From contig JAEOSK010000011.1 of NCBI GenBank assembly GCA_016840405.1, positions 2,634 to 66,633 on the forward strand: a stretch of 64,000 bases of DNA, given 5' to 3'. Source of the DNA: Candidatus Hermodarchaeum yapensis. GTDB lineage: Archaea > Asgardarchaeota > Hermodarchaeia > Hermodarchaeales > Hermodarchaeaceae. Shown piece by piece: positions 26,110 to 60,771 of the stretch (positions within the stretch are counted from its first letter, which is position 1; every line of letters begins with the position of its first letter). The position numbers and the translations under genes are program-made. The notes beneath the pieces were generated by a model. The model saw only the letters and a program-made list of their open reading frames with translations. It was not told the DNA's origin and searched no databases.

Positions 26110-26661
26110 TTAGGGAGCATCCTTTTCTTTCGGAGGTTTCTTAGTTCCCTTCTTCTTTTTAGGAGCAGCTTCTGCTTTTTTCTCCTCTTTCTTGGCAGGT
26201 TTCGGTTCCTCTTTGACGGGTTCCTCTGCTGCCTTCTCCTCCTTAGGTGGTTTCGCTTCTTCCTTTGCTTCTTCTGGGGGTTTCTCCTTCTTTGGTGGTT
26301 TCTCCTCAATCTTCTCCTCTGGGGCAACCTCCACTTCTTCCTTAGGAGCAGGTGGGGCAGGTACCGCCGGAGGAGCTTCTTCTGTCGAGTGGCGCTTTAT
26401 AATATGATTCTGTTCCTGAGCTAGGGCTTCTTCTTTTGAAGCATACAGGTGAGCAAGGCCTCGTGTCGACGATTGGCCAAATAGTCCCTGTAATTTGATA
26501 ACATATAGTTGATTTGTTTGACAATTCATTTGCGCTGCAAGTTTGTCACGGACATCTAGACGTGGGGGGGTTGCTGTCCCTGTGTGTTCGACGAGGAAGG
26601 TGATGTCCTGACGTTTGAGGAGCGAATTCTCATGTTTTTCTTCAATCTTGATTTTCATCAT
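26110..26661 (-). CDS. rps24e: Ribosomal protein S24e with P/E/K-rich C-terminal tail of about 85 aa
   Basis: 'MKIKIEEKHENSLLKRQDITFLVEHTGTATPPRLDVRDKLAAQM'. The tail reads 'PAVPAPPAPKEEVEVAPEEKIEEKPPKKEKPPEEAKEEAKPPKEEK...'. Confidence 0.85.
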   Translation of the reverse strand: MMKIKIEEKHENSLLKRQDITFLVEHTGTATPPRLDVRDKLAAQMNCQTNQLYVIKLQGLFGQSSTRGLAHLYASKEEALAQEQNHIIKRHSTEEAPPAVPAPPAPKEEVEVAPEEKIEEKPPKKEKPPEEAKEEAKPPKEEKAAEEPVKEEPKPAKKEEKKAEAAPKKKKGTKKPPKEKDAP

Positions 26662-27205
26662 TTTGCACCATTTGTTGTAGTATGGTGTCAACCGCCTGTT
26701 TGTGTTCTGATGCCACTTCGATGACAACGATTCCCTGATCAGGGAGACCATAAACGACAGCGGAGCCAAGGGGCGCAAGCGCCACCGCAGGTAGTGCCGT
26801 TAGGTCCTCCTCGCCCTCTATTAAGAGTTTCGCAGTTTTCCCAGTTTCGCCCAACATAAGGGATTGTTCAATAGCAATCCACACTTCAGGACGAATTTCA
26901 GCAGCAGGATTAGTTGCATGAAACGTGACATCAGTTTGTAGGTCGTAGTCCAAGGGATCGTGCCGTTTTGTTTTTCCGTCTAGAATGGAAAGTGTTGCTT
27001 GACAATTTACCTTTGCTAGGTTGATTGATACGAGATCACCCACAGCAATTACAGGGTTTAATTTCCGTTTACGGATGTGTGAGCAGGCATCTTCGGCTGC
27101 TCCTAATTCTGAACGTGAGAAAAGTTGCCCTTTGGGACCCTTGAGCGTTTTTCGAAGATGTTCAGGGAGTATTAAGGTGAGCTCTCGTAGCTGCTTTGCA
27201 GCCAA
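26642..27205 (-). CDS. GTP-dependent dephospho-CoA kinase family (DUF359)
   Basis: 'VIAVGDLVSINLAKVNCQATLSILDGKTKRHDP' fits the DUF359 pattern (GD.v...D.kt.R). The location between spt4 and rps24e is conserved. Family call is from memory. Confidence 0.7.
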   Translation of the reverse strand: MAAKQLRELTLILPEHLRKTLKGPKGQLFSRSELGAAEDACSHIRKRKLNPVIAVGDLVSINLAKVNCQATLSILDGKTKRHDPLDYDLQTDVTFHATNPAAEIRPEVWIAIEQSLMLGETGKTAKLLIEGEEDLTALPAVALAPLGSAVVYGLPDQGIVVIEVASEHKQAVDTILQQMVQNDENQD

Positions 27206-27217
27206 CTCAATAACCTC

Positions 27218-27406
27218 TTAACGTACTTGGAGGGCGTACTCTCCGGGTTTGGTAATGTTAAGCTTTTGAGCAATCATAGACTTGTCAGGGTCAAAAATGA
27301 GGACGAGCCCCGAAAAGCTCGATGAGAGATTGGTACTTTTACAAATTGGACAATGCGATTTCGTAGTCATTACGTGGCAGGATTTGCAAGCTTTACGTTT
27401 TGCCAT
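27218..27406 (-). CDS. spt4: Transcription elongation factor Spt4 (RpoE'')
   Basis: 62 aa with zinc ribbon 'CKSC...CPIC'. It immediately follows rpoE'. Confidence 0.8.
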   Translation of the reverse strand: MAKRKACKSCHVMTTKSHCPICKSTNLSSSFSGLVLIFDPDKSMIAQKLNITKPGEYALQVR

Positions 27407-27454
27407 TTTCTTTCGCTCCTATTTCAAATCGACTCGAGGGAAGAGACTGCAGGA

Positions 27455-28063
27455 TTATTTAGATTTGTCCTTTCCTTCTTTCTTTTTCTCCGCTTTTCGT
27501 TTGGATTCAAGCAGTTTTGCGATTTCTTCCTTAATCCAATCTAACTTTCCAAGAAAAGGTTGTCGCATTGTCAGTCCTAATTTCCCACTGCGTGCCCCAC
27601 CATCAATACTCACAGCGACAATTCGTGTTCGGACAAGGTCACCTTCTGTGATAACACGACCGGTTTCCTTACCAACTAGGGCCGCACTTCGAGGATCATA
27701 GGAGAAGAAGTCATCGGTTATTTGACTAACATGACAGAGCCCATCCAGAGGTCCAAGTCGAATAAAAGCTCCAAAATCAACGACTTCTACGACTTCACCT
27801 TGAGCAAGGTAATTTACTTTGGGCTCAAAAGTTAGGATTTTGAGCGTGACATCATGATAGGTGGCGCCATCCCCAGGAATAATTTTGCCTATTCCAATAT
27901 TGAGAACATCAGTGACCGCAATGACGAACCCGAAGTCGACATCAATGATGCCTTCGTATTGTTCTCGAAGAATTTCTTCAGCGACTACGTACAAGTCCTC
28001 ACTGAATCGGTTTGGCGGAATTCGCACATGCCCTTTAATGGTGACAGCTTGGTAGATATTCAT
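27455..28063 (-). CDS. rpoE: RNA polymerase subunit E' (Rpo7) with short K-rich tail
   Basis: 'MNIYQAVTIKGHVRIPP', the S1 domain 'GEVVEVVDFGAFIRLGPLDGLCHVSQI', and the tail 'ESKRKAEKKKEGKDKSK'. Confidence 0.9.
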   Translation of the reverse strand: MNIYQAVTIKGHVRIPPNRFSEDLYVVAEEILREQYEGIIDVDFGFVIAVTDVLNIGIGKIIPGDGATYHDVTLKILTFEPKVNYLAQGEVVEVVDFGAFIRLGPLDGLCHVSQITDDFFSYDPRSAALVGKETGRVITEGDLVRTRIVAVSIDGGARSGKLGLTMRQPFLGKLDWIKEEIAKLLESKRKAEKKKEGKDKSK

Positions 28064-28144
28064 GCCTCCGATTTCGGAACGGTTACAAGAGGGGCTGATA
28101 AGCTTTTCTATTCTATGGGAAAGCAGGCGTTTCCTGTGTTGTTG

Positions 28145-28588
28145 TTATTCGGTGAGGGCGAGAACAGCGAGTTTTCTTAAAAAAATGACGCGAGACCCTT
28201 GTTTTTTCAATTCACGACGTAATTCACTGTCGTTTGTGGCGACAAGTGCACCGGTTTTAGCGGAGTATCGAAGAAGGGCAGTATCTGCATCCATTTCTGG
28301 GGTTGGATGAGCCATGTTTTCCACGATTATACAGTGGAGGTCTATTAGTTCGAATGAGCTTCTTGCTGCCCGCTTCTCTTTTTCAGATCCTTTCAGCTCA
28401 ATCCATTGTAATTCTTGGAGAATTTGGGGAAGCACTAGAAATATGACGGTTCGACCGATTAGTTTCGGGATTTCTTCAAAAATATCAATGCGCCGTTGAA
28501 AGGGAAGGAGGAGAAAGTTGGTATCAAGTAAAACATTCGCACCTTGACTAAACGGATGTTTATTCCTCAATGACGGTGCCCCATCCAA
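28145..28588 (-). CDS. PIN-domain protein (Fcf1/Utp24-like)
   Basis: 'VLLDTNFLLLPFQRRIDIFEEI' and 'LVATNDSELRRELKKQG'. The location downstream of aIF2gamma is conserved. Confidence 0.75.
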   Translation of the reverse strand: MDGAPSLRNKHPFSQGANVLLDTNFLLLPFQRRIDIFEEIPKLIGRTVIFLVLPQILQELQWIELKGSEKEKRAARSSFELIDLHCIIVENMAHPTPEMDADTALLRYSAKTGALVATNDSELRRELKKQGSRVIFLRKLAVLALTE

Positions 28589-29825
28589 TCAACCGCCACC
28601 TCATTTCTATCTGCCGACTAATTGCTACGCGTTGACCAGGTATAATCGCAACAGGTTTCCGAAGTGTAAAGGTGGTTTTGTTTTTGCCTGCAATTTTTGT
28701 AATTTCCCCGACAGTTGCGGAAGAGCCGACAATAAGCATGAGCATCTCATTGAGTTTGATATTTTGCACAGCCACCTGGTCGACGGCACCCACAACACGT
28801 TTCAATAAATGGGTTTCGAGGGTAATCTGTTCCACAATGGAAGGGAGTTGCCCAGTGGGTCCCGCGAGATTACCAATTAATGAATCAGCACGAGTCAACG
28901 CAGGATCAAGTTTTGTTCCAACGCCAATTAAACCGCTGGGATGAGCAGTTTTCAAGGATTTCCCTTGACCAGTTTGGATGCTCGTTACAGAGGTAAAAAG
29001 GGGTGCGTATGAAAGGGAGGATTTTTCCTTTTTCACGGGAATTCCGGGTCGAATTTCCAGTTCATCCCCTACGTTCACCTTTCCTTGGATAATTGTCCCA
29101 CCGATAACACCGCCCCGTAAATCTTCGGGTCGTGTGCCAGGTTTGTTGACATCAAATGAGCGAGCAACATAGAACAATCCAGGTTTATCTAAATCCCTTT
29201 TTGGTGTAGGAATAACCTGTTCAATTGTTTGGATAAGATAGTCAATATTGGTACCAAACATAGCAGAAATTGGGATAATTGGAGCATTTTCAGCAATAGA
29301 CCCGGCTACAAAGCTTTTGATTTGATTATAGTTGTTCATCGCTTCCTTTTCAGAGACAAGTTCGACTTTGTTTTGTACAATTATGATTTTATTAACCCCA
29401 ATAATTTCCAGAGCTGCTAAATGCTCTCGTGTCTGTGGTTGAGGACATTTCTCATCAACTGCAATGAGTAATAACGCCCCATCCATTAGGGCGGCACCTG
29501 AAATCATTGTAGCCATTAGGACTTCGTGTCCTGGTGCATCCACCAATGATATTCGCCGCAACGGTTCTGCAGATCCCCCGCATTTCTGGCACTTTGAAGT
29601 TGTTGAGTATGCAGCGGCTCCTTTGCATTTTGAGCATTTATAAAAAGTCACATCAGCGTACCCTAATTTGATTGAGATCCCTCGACGAATTTCCTCAGAA
29701 TGACGATCTGTCCATTCACCAGACAATGCCCTAGCCAAAGTGGTCTTCCCATGGTCAACATGTCCAACTAGTCCGATATTGACTTCAGCTTGTTTGGGCA
29801 TCGTTTTTTTCGCGGACATAATCAT
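28560..29825 (-). CDS. eif2g: Translation initiation factor aIF2 gamma
   Basis: 'VNIGLVGHVDHGKTTL', the zinc knuckle 'CSKCKG...CQKCG', 'DAPGHE' and 'QNKVE'. Confidence 0.95.
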   Translation of the reverse strand: MIMSAKKTMPKQAEVNIGLVGHVDHGKTTLARALSGEWTDRHSEEIRRGISIKLGYADVTFYKCSKCKGAAAYSTTSKCQKCGGSAEPLRRISLVDAPGHEVLMATMISGAALMDGALLLIAVDEKCPQPQTREHLAALEIIGVNKIIIVQNKVELVSEKEAMNNYNQIKSFVAGSIAENAPIIPISAMFGTNIDYLIQTIEQVIPTPKRDLDKPGLFYVARSFDVNKPGTRPEDLRGGVIGGTIIQGKVNVGDELEIRPGIPVKKEKSSLSYAPLFTSVTSIQTGQGKSLKTAHPSGLIGVGTKLDPALTRADSLIGNLAGPTGQLPSIVEQITLETHLLKRVVGAVDQVAVQNIKLNEMLMLIVGSSATVGEITKIAGKNKTTFTLRKPVAIIPGQRVAISRQIEMRWRLIGWGTVIEE

Positions 29826-29862
29826 TCTTCATCTCATTTGGGTTCAGGTTATTTTCTTCTTT

Positions 29863-30252
29863 TTAGGATGAGCTCTTTTCAATTAACTCAAGGAGATCAG
29901 TTTCTCCGTGAGTGACAATTTTCACATTAACTTGCACGATTTCATCGGTAATCTCGTTTCCACGGACACGGCGACGACGACGTTCTCCCTTATTTTGCGG
30001 TTGATAGCCGATACCTCCACTAAGCAGTGGACGCTTGCGAACTGCACCGTGAACATCTGGCCGCATCGGTGCACCGTCGCCATCACTTCCACCGGTAATT
30101 TTGAACTGATATCCACCCAGCCCTAGGGAACTACCCTCTACTATTTCGCCGATAAGTTTTCCATGGAGCGTTCGGCTATATTGTTCACTGAGTTCAAGTT
30201 GGGTGGTTTTGCCACTTTCAGGGTCACCGATGACTAAACGGATGCGTGTCAT
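29863..30252 (-). CDS. rps6e: Ribosomal protein S6e
   Basis: 'GYQFKITGGSDGDGAPMRPDVHG...RPLLSGGIGYQP'. Confidence 0.9.
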   Translation of the reverse strand: MTRIRLVIGDPESGKTTQLELSEQYSRTLHGKLIGEIVEGSSLGLGGYQFKITGGSDGDGAPMRPDVHGAVRKRPLLSGGIGYQPQNKGERRRRRVRGNEITDEIVQVNVKIVTHGETDLLELIEKSSS

Positions 30253-30398
30253 ATTTGAATCCTCAATGTGTATGTTTAATAGCGTCCTTTTCCAAAGGAG
30301 CGCAATGGCAGGGTCGTAGCTTGGGGTAAGCGCTTATCAATTTTACCGTCAAATGAGAGAATGTTTCTCGGAGAAGAAAAGTCCTAAGATTGGTGTCT

Positions 30399-33076: not shown

Positions 33077-33466
33077 CTATTTTCCTTCTTTGGATTTTGA
33101 TTTTTTCTCTGTCTTCTTATCTTTGGGCTTTGACTTCTCTTTCTTCTTCTTCGCCTTAGTCTTCGCCTTAGGCTTCGCTTTAGGCTTTGCCTTAGGCTTC
33201 TCTTCCTTCTTCTTCGCCTTAGGCTTCGCTTTAGGCTTTGCTTTCACTTTTTTCCTAGCCTTGGCAGCTTGAGCACGGCGACGAATCCGTTCTTCATACA
33301 CTTCTGTCCATTTGAGGCGGCGAGCTCTTCGTTTTAGATAGATTTCACTTCGACGACATTTACTTGAACAAAGATACAGGAGGCTACCATCACCCTTCAC
33401 GTAGATAGATCCGGTTCCGGGTTCGACATCTGTCCCACAGAATGAACAGGTGTATTTTTTGACCAT
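33077..33466 (-). CDS. rpl24e: Ribosomal protein L24e with K-rich tail of about 65 aa
   Basis: 'CSFCGTDVEPGTGSIYVKGDGSLLYLCSSKCRR'. The tail reads 'KARKKVKAKPKAKPKAKKKEEKPKAKPKAKPKAKTKAKKKKEKSKPKDKK...'. Confidence 0.9.
   Translation of the reverse strand: MVKKYTCSFCGTDVEPGTGSIYVKGDGSLLYLCSSKCRRSEIYLKRRARRLKWTEVYEERIRRRAQAAKARKKVKAKPKAKPKAKKKEEKPKAKPKAKPKAKTKAKKKKEKSKPKDKKTEKKSKSKEGK
33161..33241. repeat. Direct repeat inside the rpl24e tail
   Basis: The 30-mer cttcgccttaggcttcgctttaggctttgc occurs at 33161-33190 and again exactly at 33212-33241 (period 51 nt). It encodes (K/A)KPKAKPKAK. Confidence 0.85.
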
Positions 33467-41564: not shown

Positions 41565-42491
41565 TCACTTGCTCTTTTTTTTCTTAGGTTTTGAGGAAGC
41601 TTTTGTCTTGGTAGTCTTTGCCTTCTTCTTGGCAGGCGCCTTCTTTTTTGCAGGGGCTTTTTTCTTGGCAGGCACTTTCTTCAGCGGGGGAGCTCGTCCA
41701 GGGAGAAGTGATATTAACTCTTCGTACTTCTTGCGGATGACATCGAAGCTTTTTTCCATGATTTTTTCGGGAGGAAGGGCACCTGTTGATTCTATTGTTA
41801 CAAAGAAGCTATTTTCATCATAGGTGACCGTGATAGCTTTTACATCGCAAGTTTCAACACAAAGATTGCATAGAGTGCAATTTAATTCGTCGACTACCAC
41901 GGCTTTTTCATTTTGCATTTTAAAGACCTTTCTGAAACAGGCCGTCACACACTCTTTGCAGCCATAACATTTGCCAGTATCCACTTTGACACTGGGGATC
42001 ATCTTGTATGCCATGGTAGAGACAGGTTGCCATTTAGCATGATCTTGTCCGATACCCAATCGAGCGTACGCTTCAGCGACAATTCGTTGGCCCTTAGCAA
42101 GTTTTGCAATAGGGATTTTATCGCTTATGGGAATCGTTTCAGGATCTTGTGGCTTTAAGTCCCCAGTTGTAGCGATATATCCATCTTCAGGCGCTTCAAC
42201 TTCCATGGTGAATCCAGCTTGACAAAGATGACAGCCCACGCCTTCACAAGTACATTCCTCCGGGCGGACGTATTGATCGTAATTAGTTTTGAGAGGCACT
42301 AACCCGAGACGATGAGCGATGATTTCATCAAAGATGGGGGATTGATTCTCAAGAATCACTACTTCCTCTATTGCCATAGTAGGGGTTTCAGCGATTATGA
42401 TTCGGCGGAGGGCATTCATTAGACCTGGACGTACATTTTCAATGCGTAATTTGAGTGTGTCTTCCGTTTTTTCAAGTACAGTCACTTTCAT
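41565..42491 (-). CDS. rpoD: RNA polymerase subunit D (Rpo3) with ferredoxin-like 4Fe-4S insert and K/A-rich tail
   Basis: 'LRIENVRPGLMNALRRIIIAETPTMAIEEV', the clusters 'CYGCKECVTAC' and 'CTLCNLCVETC', and the tail 'KKVPAKKKAPAKKKAPAKKKAKTTKTKASSKPKKKKSK'. Confidence 0.9.
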   Translation of the reverse strand: MKVTVLEKTEDTLKLRIENVRPGLMNALRRIIIAETPTMAIEEVVILENQSPIFDEIIAHRLGLVPLKTNYDQYVRPEECTCEGVGCHLCQAGFTMEVEAPEDGYIATTGDLKPQDPETIPISDKIPIAKLAKGQRIVAEAYARLGIGQDHAKWQPVSTMAYKMIPSVKVDTGKCYGCKECVTACFRKVFKMQNEKAVVVDELNCTLCNLCVETCDVKAITVTYDENSFFVTIESTGALPPEKIMEKSFDVIRKKYEELISLLPGRAPPLKKVPAKKKAPAKKKAPAKKKAKTTKTKASSKPKKKKSK

Positions 42492-42529: not shown

Positions 42530-43219
42530 TTACACTCTTCGACCACGGCGACCTCCAGGACGACGAGTACCGTCATGAGGCATTGGAGTTACTTCTTCGA
42601 TTCGTCCAATACGTAAACCAGCCCGCGCCAAAGCACGAATGGCAGCTTGAGCGCCTGGACCAGGCGTTTTGGGACCATGTCCTCCCGGGGCTCGGACCTT
42701 GATATTAACTCGTGTGATATCTTTATCCATTGCAGCTCGAGCAGCACGAAACGCGGCTTGCATTGCAGCATAAGGAGAACTCTCATCGCGGTCTGCTCTC
42801 ACAATCATTCCACCCGATGCACGGGCAATCGTTTCAGCACCGGTTATATCAGTGATATGCACGATGGTGTCGTTATAGGAACTGTAGATGTGTGCGACAC
42901 CCCATTTTTCCTTACTATCTACAGGAGTAGGTGTTCGGGCACGCCCACCTGAACGAGGCGGTCGAGATCGGGTTCGCCTGCGGGGTTTTTCGTCTTCAGG
43001 AGCTTTAGGTGCTTCAGGTTTTTTAGTGGCTTCTTTCTTCGGAGGCGCCACCTCTTCTTTCTTAGGAGTTTTTTCTTTTGGAGGAGATGTGACTTCCGTG
43101 GGTTCCTTCGTTTTCTTTTCTGGTTTCTCCTCCGCTTTCTTTTCCGGCTTCGCTTCTGCCTTCTTTTCCGGTTTCTCCTCAGGCTCCGATTTTGTTTTCT
43201 TTTCTTTCGCCATAATCAA
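42530..43219 (-). CDS. rps11: Ribosomal protein S11 (uS11) with K/E/P-rich N-terminal extension of about 95 aa
   Basis: The core is '[33 protein letters not shown]'. The N-terminus reads '[36 protein letters not shown]...'. Confidence 0.9.
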
Positions 43220-43260
43220 TCAGCACCCAAAAGTAATCCACTTTGCACTAGCATAACAAA

Positions 43261-43986
43261 TTACGAAGTGGTTTTCTTCTTCGATGAGGGTTTCTTTTCT
43301 TTTGCAGGAGGTTTTTCCTCCTCCACTTCCTCTACTTCTTCCACATCCTCAATATCGATTTCATCGTCAATTGGTACTTCCTTTATGTCGCGGATTTTTT
43401 CAATTTTGACCTCAATACGTTCTAGCTTCTCAACGGGTTCTTCAGGCGGTTTTGTAGGTGGTGTGACGGGTTCACCCGTAGGTAGTTCGGGATGATTGGG
43501 TTGTCGGTAGGGACTATCAGGAGTGTATGCGAGTTTCTTTTCCTGATCTCGATGCATGAGCATTCCAGGAGAAGTGACACGATGTTTATCTAAGGAAATA
43601 TGTCCATGTACAATTAATTGACGGGCATGATGCATTGTTTTTGCGAGGCCTTGTCGTACAACTTGGGTTTGTAATCGACGTTCTAAGATATCTCGAATTG
43701 TAAGATTCAAAATGTCATCCATTTGGGATTTCTCATCAATTAGTGACAGCCGATTTACATGATTTAGTAATTCTTTCTCTCGTTTTCCCCGTGATTCAAG
43801 GGGTAGGGCTACAAGATCCCGAGCGGTACCTCGAAATCGGGCAAGCATTGTTCGATGTCGCCAGAGTTCGCGTTTATTTCGGAGCCCATATTCTCCTACA
43901 TAAATCAGCTCATCCGCTAGACGCGTCTTTTGCCAAGGATGCCCCGGTGCAACATATTTTTTCTTGGGTTTCCGTATGCCGCCCAT
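43261..43986 (-). CDS. rps4: Ribosomal protein S4 (uS4) with acidic/K-rich C-terminal extension
   Basis: 'GGIRKPKKKYVAPGHPWQK', the S4 domain 'RRLQTQVVRQGLAKTMHHARQLIVHGHI', and the tail 'DDEIDIEDVEEVEEVEEEKPPAKEKKPSSKKK'. Confidence 0.9.
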   Translation of the reverse strand: MGGIRKPKKKYVAPGHPWQKTRLADELIYVGEYGLRNKRELWRHRTMLARFRGTARDLVALPLESRGKREKELLNHVNRLSLIDEKSQMDDILNLTIRDILERRLQTQVVRQGLAKTMHHARQLIVHGHISLDKHRVTSPGMLMHRDQEKKLAYTPDSPYRQPNHPELPTGEPVTPPTKPPEEPVEKLERIEVKIEKIRDIKEVPIDDEIDIEDVEEVEEVEEEKPPAKEKKPSSKKKTTS

Positions 43987-44791: not shown

Positions 44792-47467
44792 TTAGGATTT
44801 TCGTCGCCAAGCTGTCGGATATGTACCTGTAGACATAACTACTCTCGCCGTATCCGCAACTATTCCTGACTTAGCTTCTAGAACCTGTTTGGTTGCCATC
44901 AGCGCAGTCGCTAACGCGACCAATTCACCTTTTTGGGTCATGAGGGCGACGGAGTCACCCGGTTTGATATCTGCATGTAATTGTAACACTCCAATTACAG
45001 CAAGATTTGCGCCATGACAGATAGCATTAACAGCAGAATCACGTATGATGATCTGCGCAAGATGTTGAACTCCCTCTTCAAGAGGACGAATATAACGGCG
45101 AAGGAGACGGTCTTCCTTATCTTCCTGCCAAAAATGAAAAGCATCAACCAAATCATAGAGCGAGATAAAATTAGCATCTTCTTTAAAGGGTCCAGTGCGT
45201 GTGCGACGGAGTTCAGCCATATGCGCTCCACCGCCAAGAACCTCACCGATATCGTAACAATTACTTACAAAAGCAGCACCATTCAATGCAAAATTATGAA
45301 AGTGATCTACTGTGATATCATAGACATAACCAAAATCCGGAATTGTTTTCTTAATCGTTTTGATTTTTTCCAGAAAATAATTCGCCCCTATTTGTCTTTG
45401 TAATTCTATTAAGTCAGAATCGTCTTTAGGTATTAAAGCAAGTAAAGATTTTACCAATCTTGACAAAAGGCGTCTTGTTGGTCTTTGACCAGATAGGAGT
45501 CTATTAAATGCTCCTCCCCTGTATATTGAATTTAGTGATAACCCATATTTCTGAATTATATTTTTAATATGTGCTACACAGGAGAGAGGCATTAAGTCTT
45601 GAGATCCATATGAGGTGTATCGTGAAAACTGTGTATCAAATTGCTCAAGCTTTTTCATCTTTTGTGGATGTTTGCATTTCATTAATTGGGAAAAGCGAAT
45701 CTTATCAAAAGGCGATTTAAGTACTACATGATACTTCAGGACTGAATCACTCTTATCGAACGTTGGTGACAAGCTCTCATATATCTTTGAACGAATTCCA
45801 AGGCGTTTTAGTAGTAGAAATATTTGCACTGCAACATGTTTGTAAGCCGTTTCATATGCGATTTGTGTATAAGGTGAATTTGTTTTAATGCTAACTGTGC
45901 CATCGCCATCAAAATATCCCGATAAGAAACTGGAAATAAGATTTTTTGAAAGCGAAGAAAGATTTTCTAAATGCATGGTTTTCTTTGGGCTAGTAATTCC
46001 TAATTTTTTCGCTATCCCTGCAAGTACTGGGTTGTTGACCGTTACAATAACAGTCCTAGATATCTTAGTTTGAGTAATTTTGCTTGACGGGAATAACCGA
46101 TTCACAATTGAAATAAATGTTTCAATAAGTTCGATTTCTGTGTTTGTGAAAATAACTCTTGTAGGTCGAACGCATTTCTTTTCCTGCACTATACTGCCAT
46201 CAGACGCTACCAATCCTAGCAAATAGAGAAGTTCTGAATTAAGTTTTTTATCAGTGATTGCGTAATACGCACCTCTCTCTCCTTTGAAGGCTTCAGTCAA
46301 TTCGCATACTGAAAACCAATCTAACTCAGTTTCTTCACAAACCTGACGGAGATATTTAATTCGGATGCCCCTTTCTGGTTGGAGAAAGATTCGACGATCT
46401 ATTCCCAAAATTCGACAGGCTTTGGTTAGACTCCCATATGACCTTGAAAGGGATTTTTTACATTGTTTTTTCAGTTCGTTTCCAAAGCAAAGGAAATCAG
46501 AATCTAGTAACTCGATAAGATATGGAATTTTATCAGATTTTAGAATTAATTCGCGAGGACTAAAAACAAAGTTTCCTGGAACGACATCTTTTGCATCTAT
46601 CAATAATGGTCCATTGATATCGTCTATTAGTATTTCATGGTCAGGCGTAACGAAGAGGGTAATACCCGAATCGAGTTCGAGTTCAACCATCTCAGAAGGG
46701 GCAGGTAATCTTTGGATTCCGGTTATTGAAGAAGATACAACTTTGTGTTCGTTAAGACTCAAAGAGACCGTCTCTAAGGTTTTCAAATTAAATTGATTGG
46801 AATTGGTAACACCTAGGCTTGAGTCAATGATATCAGAGATTTGATGGAGTCCTCCATTTTGTAAAAAGAGGAATGAGGAAGGAGCAACACATAGTTTTCG
46901 AATATAGGTGCCCGCTTGACAGCCAACTTGAAAGAGCACGTCTTGCCCGTCGATTTCTAGTATATCTAAATAGTAAATCTGTCTTGTGCGGAGTCGTCGT
47001 TTGACGGAAGAGCGGAGGGGAGGACGTTGATAGATGGTTCCGACAAATTCTGCGGCAGCCTTTCGAATGTTATCTTTGGATTCTTGTTGATGGAGTCGCA
47101 GAATGCAAACATATTCTTTGCCAGCTTTTAGCAGAACATTGGCAATTTTCGTAGCGTTTCCTAACATGACAGGTAATACACCGGTTACCTTTGGATCCAA
47201 TGTTCCGGAATGCCCTGCGCGATTAAGGCTTAGGATTCGCTTAACCCAAGATACCACTTCATGGCTGGTGGGTCCTGGAGGTTTTTCTGGGCCTGTAAAG
47301 GGTTATTGACCCCTTCAGAACAAGCTATCCAGATTGATTATACCATTCTGAAATAATTCAGGAATGGTTCGCGTTCCAGGGACACGACCATAGGTGGGAT
47401 TTGTAGTATCTTCGGCGCGCGTTACCATTTTCCGCTGTTTGTCGGCAGGTAGCCGCGGTTTTGTCAC
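44792..47467 (-). CDS. cbf5: tRNA/rRNA pseudouridine synthase Cbf5 (TruB family, PUA domain), interrupted by a 42-nt intron-like insert and an intein
   Basis: Exon 1 (47467..47327, GTG start 9 nt after GGAGG) encodes 'TKPRLPADKQRKMVTRAEDTTNPTYGRVPGTRTIPELFQNGIINLD'. Exon 2 begins 'KPPGPTSHEVVSWVKRILSLNRAGHSGTLDP...GTYIRKL', then the intein, then 'CYDIGEVLGGGAHMAELRRTRTGPF' and the PUA region. The conceptual mature protein is 333 aa. Confidence 0.85.
45260..46891 (-). mobile_element. Intein (544 aa) with LAGLIDADG homing endonuclease domain inside cbf5
   Basis: It starts 'CVAPSSFLFL' (Cys1, TGT 46891-46889), has block B 'TPDH', two LAGLIDADG motifs 'LLYLLGLVASDGS' and 'FLSGYFDGDGT', and ends 'VYDITVDHFHNFALNGAAFVSN' followed by +1 Cys (45259-45257). 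The flanks rejoin to 'GTYIRKL-CYDIGEVLG', the conserved Cbf5 core. Confidence 0.85.
47285..47326 (-). other. Candidate bulge-helix-bulge-type pre-mRNA intron in cbf5 (42 nt)
   Basis: The in-frame insert AGCTTGTTCTGAAGGGGTCAATAACCCTTTACAGGCCCAGAA (minus strand) carries TGA and TAA between '...GIINLD' and 'KPPGPTSHEV...'. Exon CUGG pairs with intron-3' CCAG. A 3-nt bulge AUA lies at the 5' site. Inner helices are GCUUGU/ACAGGC and GAAGGG/CCCUUU. The 3' site lies in the A-run after CCAG. Confidence 0.65.
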
Positions 47468-51414: not shown

Positions 51415-52059
51415 TCAGGTCTTCGATTTACTTTTTGTAGCTGTCGCTCGTTTCGATTTTGCCTTCGTGGTTGAGGATTTTGCTTTGGTCGTGGATTTGG
51501 GTTTTGGTTTTGCTGCAGTCTTTGGTTTCGGTTTCGGTTTTGCAGCAGCTTTTGGTGTAGGCTTAGGTTTCGGTTTAGGTTCAGCCTTCAGTGAGGGCGC
51601 CTTGTGCGTAGTAGGTTCCTGGATTGTGCCATTTACTTTCCCCCCTGCTGCTTTGATTTTCTCAGCAGCGCGATGAGTGAAAAGTGGCGCCGTAATTGCA
51701 AGAGGAATTGAGATTTTACCAGCACCAAGCACTTTATCGAAGCCATGTTCTTCTAGATTGATAGCGATTGGAGCATCTTTTGTGGCAGGTTTACCAGATG
51801 TAAACCGTGGGAGTTGTCGCACGACGTCTCCAACATTAATGGTGTTATGAGATTGGCGGAGTTTTCCATATCGATGAAAGCCGTGTTTTCCGAAACGATC
51901 AGGGGTTTTAGCGGTGACATAAGTCCAATGATGTTTCTTTCCACCAGTTTTTCCTTTACCGCCTCGTTGACCGCCTTTTCGATGTTGTCCAATACGTCCA
52001 TAACCATGAGTGCGACTACCTCGATGTTGGCGAACACGTTTGGATTTACGTACAGTCAT
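51415..52059 (-). CDS. rpl15: Ribosomal protein L15 (uL15) with K/P/A-rich tail of about 65 aa
   Basis: 'RKSKRVRQHRGSRTHGYGRIGQHRKGGQRGGKG'. The tail reads 'KAEPKPKPKPTPKAAAKPKPKPKTAAKPKPKSTTKAKSSTTKAKSKR...'. Confidence 0.9.
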   Translation of the reverse strand: MTVRKSKRVRQHRGSRTHGYGRIGQHRKGGQRGGKGKTGGKKHHWTYVTAKTPDRFGKHGFHRYGKLRQSHNTINVGDVVRQLPRFTSGKPATKDAPIAINLEEHGFDKVLGAGKISIPLAITAPLFTHRAAEKIKAAGGKVNGTIQEPTTHKAPSLKAEPKPKPKPTPKAAAKPKPKPKTAAKPKPKSTTKAKSSTTKAKSKRATATKSKSKT

Positions 52060-52079: not shown

Positions 52080-52637
52080 TTACCTCTTTTGAATTTGAAT
52101 CTCTAAGATTCCATTGTTGAAATTAACTTGTGCCGAGTTGGGATCAACCGGTGCTGGAAGGTCAAGATTTTTGGCATATTTTCGGTCTTCGGTATCAACG
52201 TGGATTGCCACACTATAATCTGAAACCTTGACGCGAAGATCATCTCGGGTTATACCTGGAAGTTCTGCCACGATAATGATATCTTCATCTTGTTCCATTA
52301 CGTCGATTAGGGGTTCTCGTTCTTTCCGCACCATGGGTGGTCCTCCCTCTGGATTGAGATTACCAAATGGGTTTAGCCGCATCTTACCGTCGGGTCCAAC
52401 AGCCGCTGAGAATCCCCAGACCATTGGATTCTTCTGTAGATGTTTCAGAAGTTCTTCGAATTGGTCTTGGGCTTCAGTACCAAACAAATCCTCAGGATTA
52501 GTATCAGCGAACATTTTCATCATTTCTTCAAACATGCGTTGAATAGCCTCAAACTGCATATCGAAGGAGTCGTCATCCCACCAGCGTTTCCGTTTTTTGC
52601 GATCGTCTTCTTCAGTTGGCAATTTCATTCCTTCCAT
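52080..52637 (-). CDS. Hsp20/alpha-crystallin family small heat-shock protein
   Basis: Alpha-crystallin domain 'IDVMEQDEDIIIVAELPGITRDDLRVKVSDYSVAIHV...LDLPAPVDPNSAQVNFNNGILEIQIQK'. It is on the same strand as L30 and L15, with gaps of 16 nt and 20 nt. Confidence 0.8.
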   Translation of the reverse strand: MEGMKLPTEEDDRKKRKRWWDDDSFDMQFEAIQRMFEEMMKMFADTNPEDLFGTEAQDQFEELLKHLQKNPMVWGFSAAVGPDGKMRLNPFGNLNPEGGPPMVRKEREPLIDVMEQDEDIIIVAELPGITRDDLRVKVSDYSVAIHVDTEDRKYAKNLDLPAPVDPNSAQVNFNNGILEIQIQKR

Positions 52638-54873: not shown

Positions 54874-54876
54874 CTT

Positions 54877-56319: not shown

Positions 56320-56333
56320 TATCATTTTCACCT

Positions 56334-56483
56334 CTAACAGTATTTACGAAACCCGAGTTCTTCTGCGACCTCTCGGAAACATCGTCGGCACAGGCCAATA
56401 TTGTAGCTTCGAATAATGGCACGGTGTGTACCACATCGTTTACATTGACGGTGGCCTTTGCCTTGCTTCTTCTCCCTTGACAT
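56334..56483 (-). CDS. rps14: Ribosomal protein S14 (uS14, zinc type)
   Basis: Not in the ORF track (49 aa). My translation is '[49 protein letters not shown]'. Its ATG overlaps the rpl5 stop (TAATG). Confidence 0.85.
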
Positions 56484-57148
56484 TAGAATTCGTCCTCCAT
56501 ATCGGGTGTAGTGAATTGAATCCCCAACTCAGTTGAGAGAACACCCATTGCCTCTGAAGGTGTGATACGATGGCGACGTGGGACTTTGTGGCGCCCTCGT
56601 CGACGGCGTGTAATACGGAATCCTGGTCGCTCAGTGCAAATACACACATCCATCCCGAAGATGCCCAAGGTAGGGTCGTACTTGACTCCGGGAATCTGAA
56701 TGTGCTCAGATATTCCAAAGCAGACGTTACCAGAGTGATCAACAGCGCTCTCGGGAATTCGAAAATCGGTTACATCGAGCGCCCTTTTGGCAAAATCCAT
56801 CGCTCGATCTCCACGAAGTGTGACTTTACACCCCATGGGTTCGCCTTTTCGTAGCCCAAAATCACGATTATGACGCTTCGCTAATACATCCACTGGTTTT
56901 TGCCCTGTTAATTCTTCCAGAATCGTTTTGGCTTTGGCTAATGTTTCGCCGCCAGATCCTAAGGACATATTGATAACGACTTTTGAAATGAAAATTTGCC
57001 GCATGATGTTTTCCTTTTTTGCCTTTGGTGTTGTGGGAGTCTTTTCAGTGGTCTCGGTTTTAGGAGTCGCTGAGGCTGTTTTAGCCTTGGCTGTTGTTGC
57101 GCGACGACGTGTCGTTTTAGCTTTGGTCGTAGTTTTTTCTTTGGACAT
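56483..57148 (-). CDS. rpl5: Ribosomal protein L5 (uL5) with K/T-rich N-terminal extension of about 45 aa
   Basis: The core is '[38 protein letters not shown]'. The N-terminus reads '[44 protein letters not shown]'. Confidence 0.9.
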
Positions 57149-57150
57149 GT

Positions 57151-57891
57151 TTAGCCAGCCTCCGGAATGGATATCAGGGGTTCATCTTCGCCAAGCGGGA
57201 ACACATACCGGATTGCCGTGAGGATAGTTTTGTCTCCTGAACCTTGTAAGGTTCCAAGTTGATTCTCTGGATCAATTTTTGTGAGTTTACCAACAAAGCC
57301 GGTGTGGTCACCACCGGTAATGACCGCAGTTATGCCCTCCTTTAGGGGAACGTGGTTCTGAATTGTTTGATCGGGGAGTTTGATGAGAAGCATATCACCA
57401 GGTCGGTAGGTTTCCTTTGGTTTTGCTTTGGGATCTTTTACAGGTAAGAGGATTGTGCGACCATCGTGGAGGTGTAGTTGAATGTGACCTTTGGCGACAG
57501 TATTTTTCCCTGTGATTTTACAGGGTTTGAGTGCTTGTTCTTTTTTCGTAATCTTTACGAGTTGGATGAGATGTTGAGAATCTGGAACTACACGAAGACG
57601 GGTTTTTGTTTCTGGAATTTCGATGACATCCATGAGTCCGACTGGAAATTTGTAATCCTTTCGTGTTCGTCCATCAACCTTTACATGACCTTGGGTAATG
57701 ACCCGGCGAGTTTCGGTAAGTGTAGTGGTGAGATTTAGCATATCCCGAACTACGACGCCCAAAGGGAGGCTCTCGTGAAGCGGGTGTGCTCCAGGGTTTG
57801 GACGGATTGTAAAGGGATGTACTTTGCGTTTGATTCTCCAATGTCGTGGTGCAGATAATCGTTTCATGTGTTTTCGGGGACCCTTTGCCAT
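57151..57891 (-). CDS. rps4e: Ribosomal protein S4e
   Basis: 'GPRKHMKRLSAPRHWRIKRK' and 'VITQGHVKVDGRTRKDYKFPVGLMDVI'. Confidence 0.9.
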   Translation of the reverse strand: MAKGPRKHMKRLSAPRHWRIKRKVHPFTIRPNPGAHPLHESLPLGVVVRDMLNLTTTLTETRRVITQGHVKVDGRTRKDYKFPVGLMDVIEIPETKTRLRVVPDSQHLIQLVKITKKEQALKPCKITGKNTVAKGHIQLHLHDGRTILLPVKDPKAKPKETYRPGDMLLIKLPDQTIQNHVPLKEGITAVITGGDHTGFVGKLTKIDPENQLGTLQGSGDKTILTAIRYVFPLGEDEPLISIPEAG

Positions 57892-57896
57892 TTTTT

Positions 57897-58283
57897 CTAA
57901 TCCTCCTTTACTTTCAATTCACGTCGTGCGGCGGCTATGCGATCGATTACATCTTGACGCATTTTGTCGATTTTCAACTTGGTAATCATAACATTGGATG
58001 GGTGAATAGGTAGAGAAACGGCAGTCCCATCCACTTTCTCTATTTGGATGTTCTCGATATGGATCCTGAGATTTTTCATATCCACGGTTTCTATATCGCC
58101 CTCTGAGTCTCGGAAAGCTCCACGGGTAATATAAACAGTATCTCCTTTGACGACAGGTATGCGTTTTATTCCATGCTTATCGACAAGCTCAGGAGCTAAT
58201 CGAGCGGTAAGCAACTTATGTCGTCGTTGCCACTGTGCTGAATAGCGTTCTTTTCGCTGTTTTTTTGGTTTTTTCGACGTCAT
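57897..58283 (-). CDS. rpl24: Ribosomal protein L24 (uL24)
   Basis: KOW region 'IPVVKGDTVYITRGAFRDSEGDI'. Confidence 0.9.
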   Translation of the reverse strand: MTSKKPKKQRKERYSAQWQRRHKLLTARLAPELVDKHGIKRIPVVKGDTVYITRGAFRDSEGDIETVDMKNLRIHIENIQIEKVDGTAVSLPIHPSNVMITKLKIDKMRQDVIDRIAAARRELKVKED

Positions 58284-58298
58284 CTTTTCTCATCGTTC

Positions 58299-58721
58299 CT
58301 ATACAATGATACTAGCAACACTGGCTATACGTGGCCAACGTTCAGCGGCTTCCCGGGCGATTGGTCCACGGATTTCTGATCCTTGAGGGTCACCCACTTC
58401 AGAGGTAATTACAATGGCGTTATCTTCGAAGCGAATCCATTGACCACCCTTACGTCTGAATGGTTTTCGTTGGCGAACAATGATGCCACGAAGCACCTGT
58501 CGACGCATCTTGGGTGTACCGGCTTTGCAGGAAACCACTACCATGTCTGCTACACTGGCAGTAGGATTGCGACGGAGGCGGCCGTGGTATCCAATAACCG
58601 AAATGAGTTCTACGATCCTAGCGCCGCTATTATCTGCGACTGTAAGTCTAGCACCAGTGGGTAATCCTCGGCTGATTCGGGTTTTTGAAATTCCTGCAGT
58701 TTTTCGGCCTCGTTTCACCAT
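58299..58721 (-). CDS. rpl14: Ribosomal protein L14 (uL14)
   Basis: 'LTVADNSGARIVELISVIGYHGR' and 'IRFEDNAIVI'. Confidence 0.9.
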   Translation of the reverse strand: MVKRGRKTAGISKTRISRGLPTGARLTVADNSGARIVELISVIGYHGRLRRNPTASVADMVVVSCKAGTPKMRRQVLRGIIVRQRKPFRRKGGQWIRFEDNAIVITSEVGDPQGSEIRGPIAREAAERWPRIASVASIIV

Positions 58722-59065
58722 TATGATTCTTCCTCCTTTTCTTTAAGGCATTCAACGACAACATAGGACACTGTTTTGCTAAGAGGACGACATTCGGCAA
58801 TGCGAACAGTATCTCCCACTTCACAAGGGATACAAGGTGGAAGATGGGCTGCCGTCATAGAGTGGTTGCGTGAGTATCGACGATATTTTTTGATGAATCG
58901 CAGGTAATCTCGACGGACCGTGACTGTACCTTTCATCTTAGTACTGGCGACAATGCCTTTCATAACCCGCCCACGAACAGGCAAGGTGCCATGAAATGGA
59001 CAATTAGCATCTTGGCACTCCTGTTCTGGAGGATTCACTTTTAGACCAATATTACGAGCTACCAT
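58721..59065 (-). CDS. rps17: Ribosomal protein S17 (uS17)
   Basis: 'CPFHGTLPVRGRVMKGIVASTKMKGTVTVRRDY' and 'VGDTVRIAECRPLSKT'. Confidence 0.9.
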   Translation of the reverse strand: MVARNIGLKVNPPEQECQDANCPFHGTLPVRGRVMKGIVASTKMKGTVTVRRDYLRFIKKYRRYSRNHSMTAAHLPPCIPCEVGDTVRIAECRPLSKTVSYVVVECLKEKEEES

Positions 59066-59346
59066 CGTAGTTTTTTCACCCTCCTTAATCGTTCTGCGGG
59101 ATGCCCGAGTAGGGAGTTCCCATCAAGTTGTGCGGTTTCACCATTGGGCAGGAATAGTTTGAAAGTGCTTGTTGCTTTGGGTATCTGCCGATGATGAAGA
59201 CCGTCAAATAATGTGAGCGTTCCATGAGTTTCATCAATAATGTGACCAGTTAGTCTGTTCAAACTGGGATTAGTGGACTGCACCACGGTCGCGGATAGTC
59301 CAATAAGCGGACGGATTGAGAGGCGCTTTGAATAACGGAGCATCAT
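59059..59346 (-). CDS. rnp1: RNase P protein component 1 (Rpp29)
   Basis: 'LIGLSATVVQSTNPSLNRLTGHIIDETHGTLTL...IPKATSTFKLFL'. The position between rpl29 and rps17 is conserved. Confidence 0.85.
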   Translation of the reverse strand: MMLRYSKRLSIRPLIGLSATVVQSTNPSLNRLTGHIIDETHGTLTLFDGLHHRQIPKATSTFKLFLPNGETAQLDGNSLLGHPAERLRRVKKLRW

Positions 59347-59579
59347 GATGTCTCTCCTTCCTCCATGTCAGCAGGAGCTAGACGTGCTTCCTCATTCACG
59401 ATAGTAAGTATCCGGGCGATACTCCGGCGAAGCGCCCGAATGGCACTGGGGTTTTCTATTCCAGCACCAGACATCATTGCCGCTCGTTGTTTCGCGAGTT
59501 CAGCACGCAGTTCGTTTAATTTACGTTTTCTTTCCTCAGGACGCATTTCCCGGATCTCAGTCACCGTAATTATTGCCAT
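59343..59579 (-). CDS. rpl29: Ribosomal protein L29 (uL29)
   Basis: 'EIREMRPEERKRKLNELRAELAKQRA'. Confidence 0.9.
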   Translation of the reverse strand: MAIITVTEIREMRPEERKRKLNELRAELAKQRAAMMSGAGIENPSAIRALRRSIARILTIVNEEARLAPADMEEGETS

Positions 59580-59604
59580 TGCGTTTGTGCCTCCTTCTCA
59601 TACC

Positions 59605-60771
59605 TCACTTTTTTGAAGATGATTTACTTGATTTTGCGGCGGTTTCCTTGCTAGGCTTGGTTTCTGATTTCTTGGCTTTCGATTTCGCAGAATCCTTCTT
59701 GGTTTTCGCCTTGGGTTTTTCTGCCGCCTTTTTCGTTGTCTTAGTTGTAGCCTTGGGCTTTGCCTTAGCTTTGGGTTTCGTCTCAACCTTCTTTTTCTTC
59801 GCTTTCGGCTTTTCCTCTACTTTGGCCTTCTTCGGCTTTGCCTTGGGCTTCTCTTCCACCTTCTTCTTAGCCTTGGGCTTGGGTTTTTCTGGTTCCTTCT
59901 TTTTCGCAGGTGCAGCCTTAGGCTTCTTCTTCGGCTTTGGCTTAGGTTTCTCTGGTTCGGGTTTCTTTTCCAGTGGAGGCACATCTTCAGGCTCAGGTTC
60001 AGGAATTTGGTCTAGTTCCGATTCACTAGGAGTGTCCACTGCAGGAGATGGTTCTCCACTTTCTTCAATGAATTCTTCAATGGGCGGCGCTTCTTCTATG
60101 GGAAGTTCTTCCTCAATGACTTCAATTTCTGAAGCTTCAACCGCTTCAGTGGCAGGAACCGGCGGAATTTCTACTTCACGGTGCATAATTATCGGTCGAT
60201 CCGGAGCAACAGCATCAGGAAGCATTACGCGTATTTGTACGCCCAATATTCCAGGTTTCATAATCGCATAAGCAATGCCGTGACTAACAGCAGTGCGAAT
60301 AGGTTCACCAGTTTTGGCAACGAAGCCACTTCGGAATTTTTGGTATCGGGCTCTTCGGCTGGTAAGCTTGCCAGATATGGAGATTTCCACGCCCTTAGCT
60401 CCAGCCCCGACAATACGGCGAAGAACACCATACGCTGCACGACGGAAATGATCGCCACGTTCCAGGCGTTGAGCTAGTCGTTCAGCCATAATGGCGCCGT
60501 TCAGCTCAGGAACTTCAACTTCACTAACTTCAATTTGTGGGGCTTCCAACCCGAATTCGTGTTCTAAGGTCTCCGTTAATTCACGAACAGTGGTTCCTCG
60601 TCGTCCAATCACCATTCCAGGACGAGAGGCATACACAACTACACGCATACCCAATGGCGTCTTTTGGAGATCAACACCAGCATACCCTGCGCGACGGAGT
60701 TCACGACGTAAGAAATCATTTACTTTGACTTTTAATAACCCTCGATTAATGAAGTGATCTTCAGCTGGCAT
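59605..60771 (-). CDS. rps3: Ribosomal protein S3 (uS3) with ~185-aa bipartite (acidic then K-rich) C-terminal extension
   Basis: KH and S3-C core: 'FINRGLLKVKVNDFLRRELRRAGYAGVDLQKTPLGMRVVVYASRPGMVIGRRG'. The tail runs from 'EVIEEELPIEEAPPIEEFIEESGE' into 'KKPEPEKPKPKPKKKPKAAPAKKKEPEKPKPKAKKK...'. Confidence 0.9.
   Translation of the reverse strand: MPAEDHFINRGLLKVKVNDFLRRELRRAGYAGVDLQKTPLGMRVVVYASRPGMVIGRRGTTVRELTETLEHEFGLEAPQIEVSEVEVPELNGAIMAERLAQRLERGDHFRRAAYGVLRRIVGAGAKGVEISISGKLTSRRARYQKFRSGFVAKTGEPIRTAVSHGIAYAIMKPGILGVQIRVMLPDAVAPDRPIIMHREVEIPPVPATEAVEASEIEVIEEELPIEEAPPIEEFIEESGEPSPAVDTPSESELDQIPEPEPEDVPPLEKKPEPEKPKPKPKKKPKAAPAKKKEPEKPKPKAKKKVEEKPKAKPKKAKVEEKPKAKKKKVETKPKAKAKPKATTKTTKKAAEKPKAKTKKDSAKSKAKKSETKPSKETAAKSSKSSSKK

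Follow-up and report, generated by a model that had tools for sequence, protein, structure and literature searches.

A 64,000-nucleotide stretch of the Candidatus Hermodarchaeum yapensis genome (contig JAEOSK010000011.1, hereafter the window) encodes nine ribosomal, RNA polymerase and exosome proteins that carry long, charged, low-complexity tails at one terminus, rich in lysine, proline, alanine and glutamate. The tails are genuine and in frame; they are conserved across the family, consist of DNA repeats and are enriched on information-processing proteins. The source metagenome-assembled genome (MAG) is archaeal, comprises 2.7 Mb in 77 contigs and is 86% complete, the window being part of one contig. 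Members of its genus (g1) were deposited as Candidatus Hermodarchaeota (isolates YT1_028 and YT2_032). Here, the family denotes g1 together with its sister genus g2, and other Asgard families served as the comparison set. Orthologs were pulled from the genomes of relatives, with 3-7 g1 genomes per tailed protein. Core limits were taken from Pfam domain bounds, the lengths of orthologs with solved structures provided an independent yardstick, and net charges and tail totals are arithmetic on the sequences. The compared genomes of one family are kin, and the p-values given below therefore overstate the significance.

Tailed proteins of the window

The initial annotation of this DNA spoke of at least eleven proteins with extensions of 17-185 amino acids (aa) and listed ten. 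Nine of these ten possess in-frame extensions of 44-188 aa past their Pfam cores, located within a few codons of the positions originally given, and profile hidden Markov models delimit the cores as had been proposed, each Pfam domain ending (or starting) short of the tail. The tenth, RpoE', has only a short end that is found throughout the Asgard genomes compared. All tailed genes of the window are located on the minus strand. Solved archaeal orthologs are 33-180 aa shorter than the tailed proteins and, because they are so much shorter, the extensions represent real additions of 44-188 residues. The further statement that archaeal orthologs such as L24e and Rrp41 lack such tails agrees with the solved lengths given below, with the exception of one S3 entry.

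The S3 protein (uS3; rps3, 59605..60771) comprises 388 aa, with a core spanning aa 1 to ~200 and the Pfam domains KH_2 and S3_C ending at aa 182. Its tail (59605-60162) consists of an acidic E/P half (59968-60162), containing the conserved motif EEELPIEEAPPIEEF, followed by a basic KPKAK half (59605-59967), the charge being about -21 over the first 60 residues and then about +37. Solved archaeal uS3 proteins measure 186-229 aa, apart from the one entry of 318 aa. The L5 protein (uL5; rpl5, 56483..57148; 221 aa) is extended at its N-terminus by 48 K/T/A-rich residues (57005-57148), with the Pfam core starting at aa 47 and an internal methionine at the canonical start; solved uL5 proteins have 165-188 aa. 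For L15 (uL15; rpl15, 51415..52059; 214 aa), a KPKPK/AAKPK C-terminal tail of 69 aa (51415-51612, net +20) follows a Pfam core reaching to aa 142, and solved orthologs are 140-156 aa long in archaea and eukaryotes alike. The S4 domain of uS4 (rps4, 43261..43986; 241 aa) extends to aa 143, and the protein ends in a tail of ~76 aa (43261-43500) in which an acidic block precedes a short basic tip (net -10, tip +5); solved archaeal uS4 proteins (159-218 aa) align to aa ~168 of the query. S11 (uS11; rps11, 42530..43213) comprises 227 aa from the ATG at 43213, with a Pfam core at aa 105-223 and a K/E/P N-terminal extension of ~100 aa (42917-43213, net +11), while solved uS11 proteins are 126-141 aa long.

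Among the remaining tailed proteins, the RNA polymerase subunit RpoD (Rpo3; 41565..42491; 308 aa) presents an RNA_pol_L/RNA_pol_A_bac/Fer4 core up to ~aa 255 according to Pfam and a C-terminal tail of 44 aa (41565-41700, net +21) in which (P)AKKKA is repeated three times; solved archaeal Rpo3 proteins are 259-275 aa long. L24e (eL24; rpl24e, 33077..33466; 129 aa, Pfam core 3-59) carries a KPKA-repeat C-terminal tail of ~67 aa (33077-33283) with 49% Lys, 9% Pro and a net charge of +30, compared with a total length of 53-67 aa in solved archaeal eL24. The S24e protein (eS24; rps24e, 26110..26661; 183 aa, Pfam core 5-96) ends in a P/E/K tail of ~81 aa (26110-26358, net ~0), its true start being the methionine at 26661 (MMKIKIEEK) and not the TTG at 26778; solved archaeal eS24 proteins have 96-128 aa. 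In the exosome RNase PH subunit Rrp41 (rrp41, 9329..10288; 319 aa), the Pfam domains RNase_PH and RNase_PH_C end at aa 227, and an acidic-then-basic C-terminal tail of ~73 aa (9329-9545, net +4) extends to the start of rrp42 at ~9330, with solved archaeal orthologs measuring 240-258 aa. The RpoE' protein (Rpo7; 27455..28063, minus strand; 202 aa) shows a short K-rich end, KRKAEKKKEGKDKSK, at ~27455-27502. Similar short K/E ends are present in all five other Asgard families examined, and the RpoE' end stands outside the lineage-specific trait.

The tails contain 15-49% K and 6-22% P, with K, P, A and E together accounting for 52-91% and threonine in addition, and their grand average of hydropathy (GRAVY) ranges from -1.3 to -2.4; proteome-wide, Lys amounts to 5.2% in a crude whole-genome gene call. 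Two designs were distinguished. A purely polycationic design is seen in L24e, RpoD, L15 and L5 (+10), as well as in two further proteins of the genome-wide scan described below, L35Ae (+34) and aIF2-beta (+19). An acidic-first, basic-last design is seen in S3, S4, S24e and Rrp41. The ribosomal extensions are all terminal, five being C-terminal (S3, S4, S24e, L15, L24e) and three N-terminal (S11, L5, L35Ae). Assuming that all are retained, these eight tails would add ~733 residues and a net charge of ~+112 to each ribosome.

An AlphaFold2 model of S3, built from an 8-sequence alignment, reproduced the expected alpha/beta fold of the core with moderate confidence. Residues 187-388 showed no secondary structure, with pLDDT (predicted local distance difference test) values mostly below 50, and the S3 tail is predicted to be disordered. 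A small pLDDT bump was observed at the conserved acidic motif, which is near-invariant in the S3 tails of the genus as EEELPIEEAP(P/S)IEEF(I/V)(E/D)E (window 60057-60113, aa ~220-238), reads EEEGPLEEASSIEEY in the sister genus and can be made out faintly in other Asgard families. Since this bump is the sole one in the tail, the motif is a candidate short linear binding motif.

At the DNA level, the description of the tails as short tandem or direct repeats proved accurate, 12 of the window's 16 tandem-repeat rows being located inside tails, with periods of 9, 12, 15, 18, 24, 30 and 36 nucleotides (nt), nearly all multiples of three. The exact 30-mer reported as duplicated in rpl24e is in fact a 31-mer, found at 33160 and 33211 inside a 12-nt periodic array. 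Long shadow open reading frames (ORFs) created by the repeats on both strands, also described previously, were seen on the plus strand opposite the S3 tail (59573-60271) and the S11 extension (42888-43256), and on the same strand over the S24e tail (25821-26327). A codon-usage gene caller took shadow ORFs in place of S24e and L35Ae. In practical terms, such ORFs lead to gene-calling errors, and the tails inflate protein lengths and may draw spurious low-complexity similarity matches. Copying of DNA cassettes between tailed genes was tested for and not detected: the longest DNA word common to tails of different genes has 17 nt (S24e/Alba), which does not exceed the synonymous-resampling null, whose maximum is 23. 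In this test, the Rrp41 and RpoD tails were cut out of frame, which affects their resampled null and not the observed lengths.

Conservation in the family and distribution beyond it

Every g1 genome with an intact S3 gene encodes the S3 tail, with a length of 155-236 aa and an acidic E/P part followed by a basic KPKAK part, most tails ending in ...SKKESSKK. In g2, whose S3 cores are ~75% identical to those of g1, the tail is shorter and the acidic motif is kept, while another repeat, EEKPKRKRRTRK, makes up the basic half, in the same acidic-then-basic order. The replacement of the repeat with retention of the architecture argues for selection on the architecture, and it is the strongest hint that the architecture is maintained beyond ancestry alone. 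The C-terminal tails of RpoD, S4, L15, L24e, S24e and Rrp41 and the N-terminal extensions of L5 and S11 are likewise in frame in all g1 genomes examined. Tails in g2 are shorter wherever the gene was recovered; L24e, S24e and Rrp41 were not recovered from this genus. For instance, the L5 extension (45-51 aa) is in frame directly after the S4e stop in 8 of 8 family genomes (6 g1 and 2 g2), and in 7 g1 genomes the L15 tail measures 67-87 aa and closes with the conserved KRATATKGKAKT. The S4 tail is kept in 4 g1 genomes and is shorter in g2, the S11 extension is present in both genera, and the RpoD tail is present in g1 and short in g2. The remaining tails in g1 measure 57-73 aa in L24e (5 genomes), 64-81 aa in S24e (5) and 60-73 aa in Rrp41 (4).

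Within g1, cores are 69-98% identical and tails 45-65%, with 4-21% gaps in the tail alignments; the K/P/A/E fractions and the net charge vary little. In the 51 ortholog instances compared, which represent nine proteins, the distinct in-frame gap blocks number 104 in tails and 1 in cores, and no frameshifted tail was found among these g1 instances. Nineteen untailed neighbours (S13, L18e, L30, S5, S4e, L6, L14e, L13, S9, S2, S28e, L7Ae, S6e, S15, S3Ae, L15e, L37Ae, Rrp42 and Rrp4) have the same length everywhere. Furthermore, identical tail composition and ends were observed in MAGs assembled independently in different studies (YT1_028, YT2_032, H3S.115, H2M.135, ERP108616). The sequences thus support a trait of the whole family, g1 and g2 together, and the initial suggestion of a lineage-wide trait, as opposed to annotation noise, is upheld by in-frame tails across both genera and in independent MAGs.

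Most other Asgard families are without the tails and some have milder versions. The S3 proteins of other families mostly have acidic ends only, of 22-147 aa; an acidic-then-basic S3 tail is also found in the genomes G029 and G021, in a form particular to each. L5 begins in 8 other families with a short W..NPMRKP N-terminus instead of the extension. The L15 tail is absent in 6 other families examined, the S4 tail in 3, the RpoD tail in 2, and the aIF2-beta extension in 12 genomes, which represent 11 other families. Outside the family, a long K/E-rich S11 N-extension (~85 aa) occurs in G029 and a shorter one (~40 aa) in the 1.4-Mb genome G019, with none in G022; the L24e tail is missing in four families and measures ~25 aa in G029, and the S24e tail measures 0-35 aa in 5 families. 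A degenerate DNA pattern for K-P-K-x-K-P-K coding sites returned 8.2 sites per genome in the family (reversed-pattern control, 1.5), compared with 1.06 (control, 0.73) in a set of 132 genomes that represents 26 other Asgard families (Mann-Whitney p = 1e-9, overstated since kin are non-independent). Only 4 of these 132 genomes have at least 5 such sites, mostly clustered in one to three loci. In two other Asgard families, long KPKA-coding runs of 12-nt repeats were observed in individual genes (G099:C13:2981-3151, G144:C62:51832-51936 and G144:C62:71570-71626), with 11-13 pattern hits spread over one to three loci.

The spread of the tails beyond the window was examined with a crude codon-usage gene call (2478 proteins), corrected by a six-frame scan. 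K-rich K/P/A/E/T/S segments were identified in 42 of the 2478 called proteins and in a few missed genes. Among the 12 segments of at least 40 aa, 7 belong to ribosomal proteins (S3, S11, L15, L24e, L5, S24e, L35Ae) and the remaining five to RpoD, Rrp41, Alba, aIF2-beta and one unknown K/E-rich protein. The ribosomal excess is significant (hypergeometric p = 4e-9, subject to the caveat of kinship and assuming ~65 ribosomal proteins as the archaeal complement, 32 of which are Pfam-verified within the window), a strong enrichment on information-processing proteins. The initial annotation counted three machines; more are affected, namely, in addition to the ribosome, RNA polymerase and exosome, also Alba, aIF2-beta and an FKBP. 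Shorter K-rich ends were found in the FKBP, a MetAP-type M24 peptidase, two AbrB-PhoU regulators, a winged helix-turn-helix-like protein, GrpE, DnaK and a small protein that is AbrB-like by eye and has no Pfam hit. Of 27 low-complexity regions of the basic or mixed K/E kind, 24 occupy a terminus, and other low-complexity kinds are mostly internal. The extensions of aIF2-beta, Alba and L35Ae are long in g1, shorter in g2 and not present in the other families examined.

Several of these genes show additional features. The aIF2-beta gene (C51:15128-15703, plus strand) has an apparent GTG start throughout the family (V(S/P)(S/P)K...), a conserved RR..V context upstream and an N-extension of 35-75 aa rich in K/T/P/A. 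Eukaryotic eIF2-beta carries N-terminal lysine boxes, and the extension is located where these are found. The M24 peptidase (C8:1051-2043, minus strand) has a 38-aa acidic/lysine N-terminal extension, which recalls the charged N-terminal blocks of eukaryotic MetAP2. L13e (C14:24400-25086, plus strand) is fused through an internal KPKAKPKAEKP linker to helix-hairpin-helix (HhH) domains; a protein that is L32e-like by eye in another Asgard family (G023, locus L042) has an N-terminal HhH-like region and a K-rich linker. In the window, a DUF2095 protein (18156-18587, minus strand; 143 aa) shows a K-rich N-terminus followed by an acidic stretch, conserved in three g1 members. An Hsp20/CS-domain gene (52080-52637, minus strand) separates rpl30 from rpl15 within the spc-type ribosomal operon, a placement conserved in g1, g2 and at least 2 other Asgard families. 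An ORF of 821 aa (44792-47257, minus strand), which by eye and from its operon position we take to be cbf5, exceeds twice the usual Cbf5 length.

A coupling of the tails to expansion segments of ribosomal RNA (rRNA) was also considered and rejected. Two fragments of large subunit (LSU) rRNA (C17:1-2853, L074; C60:1-2319, L075) exceed the archaeal model by ~513 and ~918 nt, and the insertion at 401-663 (minus strand) of L074 matches the group I intron family RF00028 with 70 bits. The fragments overlap in model coordinates and, because they sit at contig ends and their insert sizes disagree, they provide no evidence for rRNA expansion segments.

Origin and maintenance of the tails

On balance, and with modest confidence, we regard the extensions as genuine, translated and disordered tails that grew by slippage in the ancestor of the family and serve as polyanion-binding arms, their composition, charge pattern and end motifs being under selection. 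Growth would have occurred through in-frame tandem duplication, by slippage of 9-36-nt units, at presumably solvent-exposed termini of abundant nucleic-acid-handling proteins. Such growth may be dated to the common ancestor of the family, including the MAGs deposited as Candidatus Hermodarchaeota; because seven of the extensions, listed below, lacked a counterpart in every other Asgard family examined, the tails probably originated within this family. Selection would then hold the composition, charge pattern and end motifs, and not the exact sequence, with the tails kept for their bulk physical properties. If translated and retained in the mature proteins, the tails should lie at the surface, judging from where the solved orthologs end, and the lysine arms would most likely bind RNA, DNA, polyphosphate or other polyanions non-specifically, capturing or holding them close to the ribosome, RNA polymerase, exosome, Alba and aIF2. 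Histone H1 C-terminal tails and bacterial PAKKA/KPAA tails act in this manner, by non-specific electrostatic binding. The acidic spacers may keep the arm extended away from the rRNA surface, or may mask the basic tip. The physiological roles put forward initially, namely nucleic-acid tethering, charge compensation and condensate formation, are hypothetical.

Several observations weigh against this interpretation. Long tails are found on just 7 of the 32 Pfam-verified ribosomal proteins in the window, and several are near neutral or net acidic (S4, S24e and Rrp41, with -10, ~0 and +4), so that gripping RNA cannot by itself account for the tails. The length spread is wide even inside the genus, as the S3 tails illustrate, in the manner of weakly constrained sequence, and the frameshift-free record is a weaker proof of selection than it appears, because units that are multiples of three mechanically favour in-frame indels. 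The restricted set of ribosomal proteins, the near-neutral tails and the length spread lend weight to a serious, if less probable, possibility, namely that the tails are tolerated junk, produced by runaway in-frame repeat expansion at exposed termini and having no specific function (at most that of entropic bristles). Their composition would then be held by repeat-generating mutation together with selection only against sticky or harmful sequence. The fast sequence turnover, with its gapped tail alignments, the recent tandem repeats, including the exact 31-mer duplication, and the recurrent rise of such tails in unrelated lineages, as in the uL15 search described below, would all be accommodated. 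Less readily explained by junk are the occurrence of tails on the same proteins across two genera with considerably diverged S3 cores, the conservation of the end motifs and the acidic S3 motif, and the survival of the acidic-then-basic order through a swap of the basic repeat unit in g2. The strong enrichment concerns proteins of the nucleic-acid machinery, as opposed to abundant proteins at large, and none of the 51 ortholog tails is frameshifted although other frames are open.

An artefact, in which misassembled repeats, wrong frames or starts, or untranslated spacer were read as protein, is the least probable of the explanations. Long shadow ORFs on both strands did mislead a simple gene caller, and L5 has its internal methionine at the canonical start; however, the same in-frame tails, with the same composition and ends, recur in independently assembled MAGs, and the N-extensions begin at a conserved start and take up all the DNA between the core and the preceding gene. 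It is also highly improbable that the tails are homologs or forerunners of the eukaryote-specific extensions (the eL24 arm, the eIF2-beta lysine boxes and the uS11/uS3 ends), inherited from an Asgard ancestor. The same termini are longer in eukaryotes, where eL24 reaches 155-165 aa and uS11 has additional N-terminal residues, and a phmmer alignment of the L24e tail with eukaryotic eL24 has E ~1e-8. This alignment draws on low-complexity K/A content alone, a helical arm like that of eL24 is not expected from proline-rich KPKA repeats, and uL15 is tail-less in eukaryotes. The phyletic distribution is what disfavours this candidate: the extensions of aIF2-beta, Alba, L35Ae, L15, L5, L24e and RpoD were found in none of the other Asgard families examined (2-12 genomes each), and for this reason the tails appear to have originated independently of the eukaryotic extensions.

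A more far-reaching version of the favoured reading, which we consider improbable, is that the shared tails act as a common address in Hermodarchaeota, by which ribosomes (or pre-ribosomes), RNA polymerase, exosome, Alba and aIF2 would be brought together in a single compartment or condensate rich in polyanions, nucleolus-like or nucleoid-associated. If so, they would represent an independent Asgard invention of the charge-based nuclear/nucleolar localisation code of eukaryotes, possibly regulated by lysine modification. Irrespective of this, a whole Asgard family appears to have enlarged its ribosome by charged tails, with similar ones on RNA polymerase, exosome, Alba and aIF2-beta. For evolution, this offers a clean natural case in which charged tails grew repeatedly and independently on the machinery of translation and transcription, several of the termini being ones that are also extended in eukaryotes. 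Should a function such as polyanion binding, condensation or hibernation be demonstrated, the case would inform how such extensions arise.

Comparison with known tails and extensions

The rarity implied by the initial annotation is not supported, since comparable ends have been published (PMC6821194), some other Asgard families have milder versions and long uL15 proteins recur among sequence representatives. A HMMER search with uL15 against 1.84 billion representatives returned, among the best 150, 32 proteins of at least 175 aa (~21%), a ranking that is biased towards tailed sequences. Among 13 long non-relatives examined, 11 have low-complexity C-terminal tails of 40-80 aa, mostly rich in K/P/A/E/G and in a few cases acidic or S/T-rich; the remaining two represent an HhH-domain fusion and a weakly biased extension. 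Within the literature collection searched, no paper links Hermodarchaeota with lysine-rich tails.

Eukaryotic ribosomal and initiation factor extensions resemble the Hermodarchaeal tails in being charged and lysine-rich and in occupying the same terminus in L24e (C-terminal), S11 (N-terminal) and aIF2-beta (N-terminal, where eukaryotes have K-boxes). They differ in descent, the aIF2-beta extension and, in four of five families, the L24e tail being absent from the other Asgard archaea examined, as well as in structure, since the tails described here are proline-rich, would be unlikely to form a long helix (9% Pro in L24e) and share no common sequence motif. Within the Asgard archaea, histones of Loki- and Hodarchaeales possess disordered N-terminal tails of 16-32 aa with >30% Lys, which are methylated and acetylated (bioRxiv 10.64898/2026.07.02.735847). 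Those proteins have a histone fold and differ from the ones described here, whose tails are much longer and which belong to another Asgard lineage; no histones were seen among the K-rich segments of the source genome in the K-rich scan.

Histone-H1-like tails rich in K/A/P are known from several bacterial proteins, HupB being one of them. Among nucleic-acid-binding proteins, such tails are described for mycobacterial Ku with its PAKKA repeats (PMC3553676) and for Pseudomonas AlgP (PMC9239181), as tandem repeats of four to six residues that follow a folded nucleic-acid-binding core and are strongly cationic, disordered and binding DNA or polyphosphate non-specifically. On the basis of these descriptions, the Hermodarchaeal tails are similar in their short Lys/Ala/Pro repeats and in the strongly positive charge of L24e, RpoD, L15, L35Ae and the basic half of S3. 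Unlike PAKKA-type tails as described there, S4 and S24e are not strongly positive and several tails have an acidic spacer. The hosts are also different, being subunits of the archaeal ribosome, RNA polymerase and exosome and not nucleoid proteins (Alba excepted).

The closest parallel is provided by the low-complexity regions (LCRs) surveyed in 1500 prokaryotic proteomes by Ntountoumi et al. (2019, Nucleic Acids Research; PMC6821194). According to that survey, LCRs occur often in proteins of the ribosome, where they are mostly C-terminal, lie at the ribosome surface and have a high content of Ala, Glu and Lys. S3 and S24e are recurrent carriers in archaea, 15% of archaeal ribosomal LCRs contain at least 30% Lys, lysine-rich LCRs bind nucleic acids, and many bacterial ribosomal proteins have comparable ends. 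The Hermodarchaeal tails conform to this account in that the biased segment is located outside the conserved ribosomal domain, as defined by Pfam limits, SEG and K-rich scans and solved lengths, in that all ribosomal tails are terminal, and in that Ala, Glu and Lys dominate. They depart from it in the simultaneous presence, within one lineage, of tails on at least 8 ribosomal proteins together with RpoD, Rrp41, Alba, aIF2-beta and FKBP, as well as in their high proline content, KPKA-type repeats, lengths of up to 188 aa, three N-terminal positions and four acidic-then-basic designs. As far as its text indicates, the survey included no Asgard genome. The kind of feature is therefore known and recurrent, and the Hermodarchaeal tails are a well-documented new example of it, not a new system, whose notable aspects are the breadth across proteins and the occurrence in an Asgard lineage.

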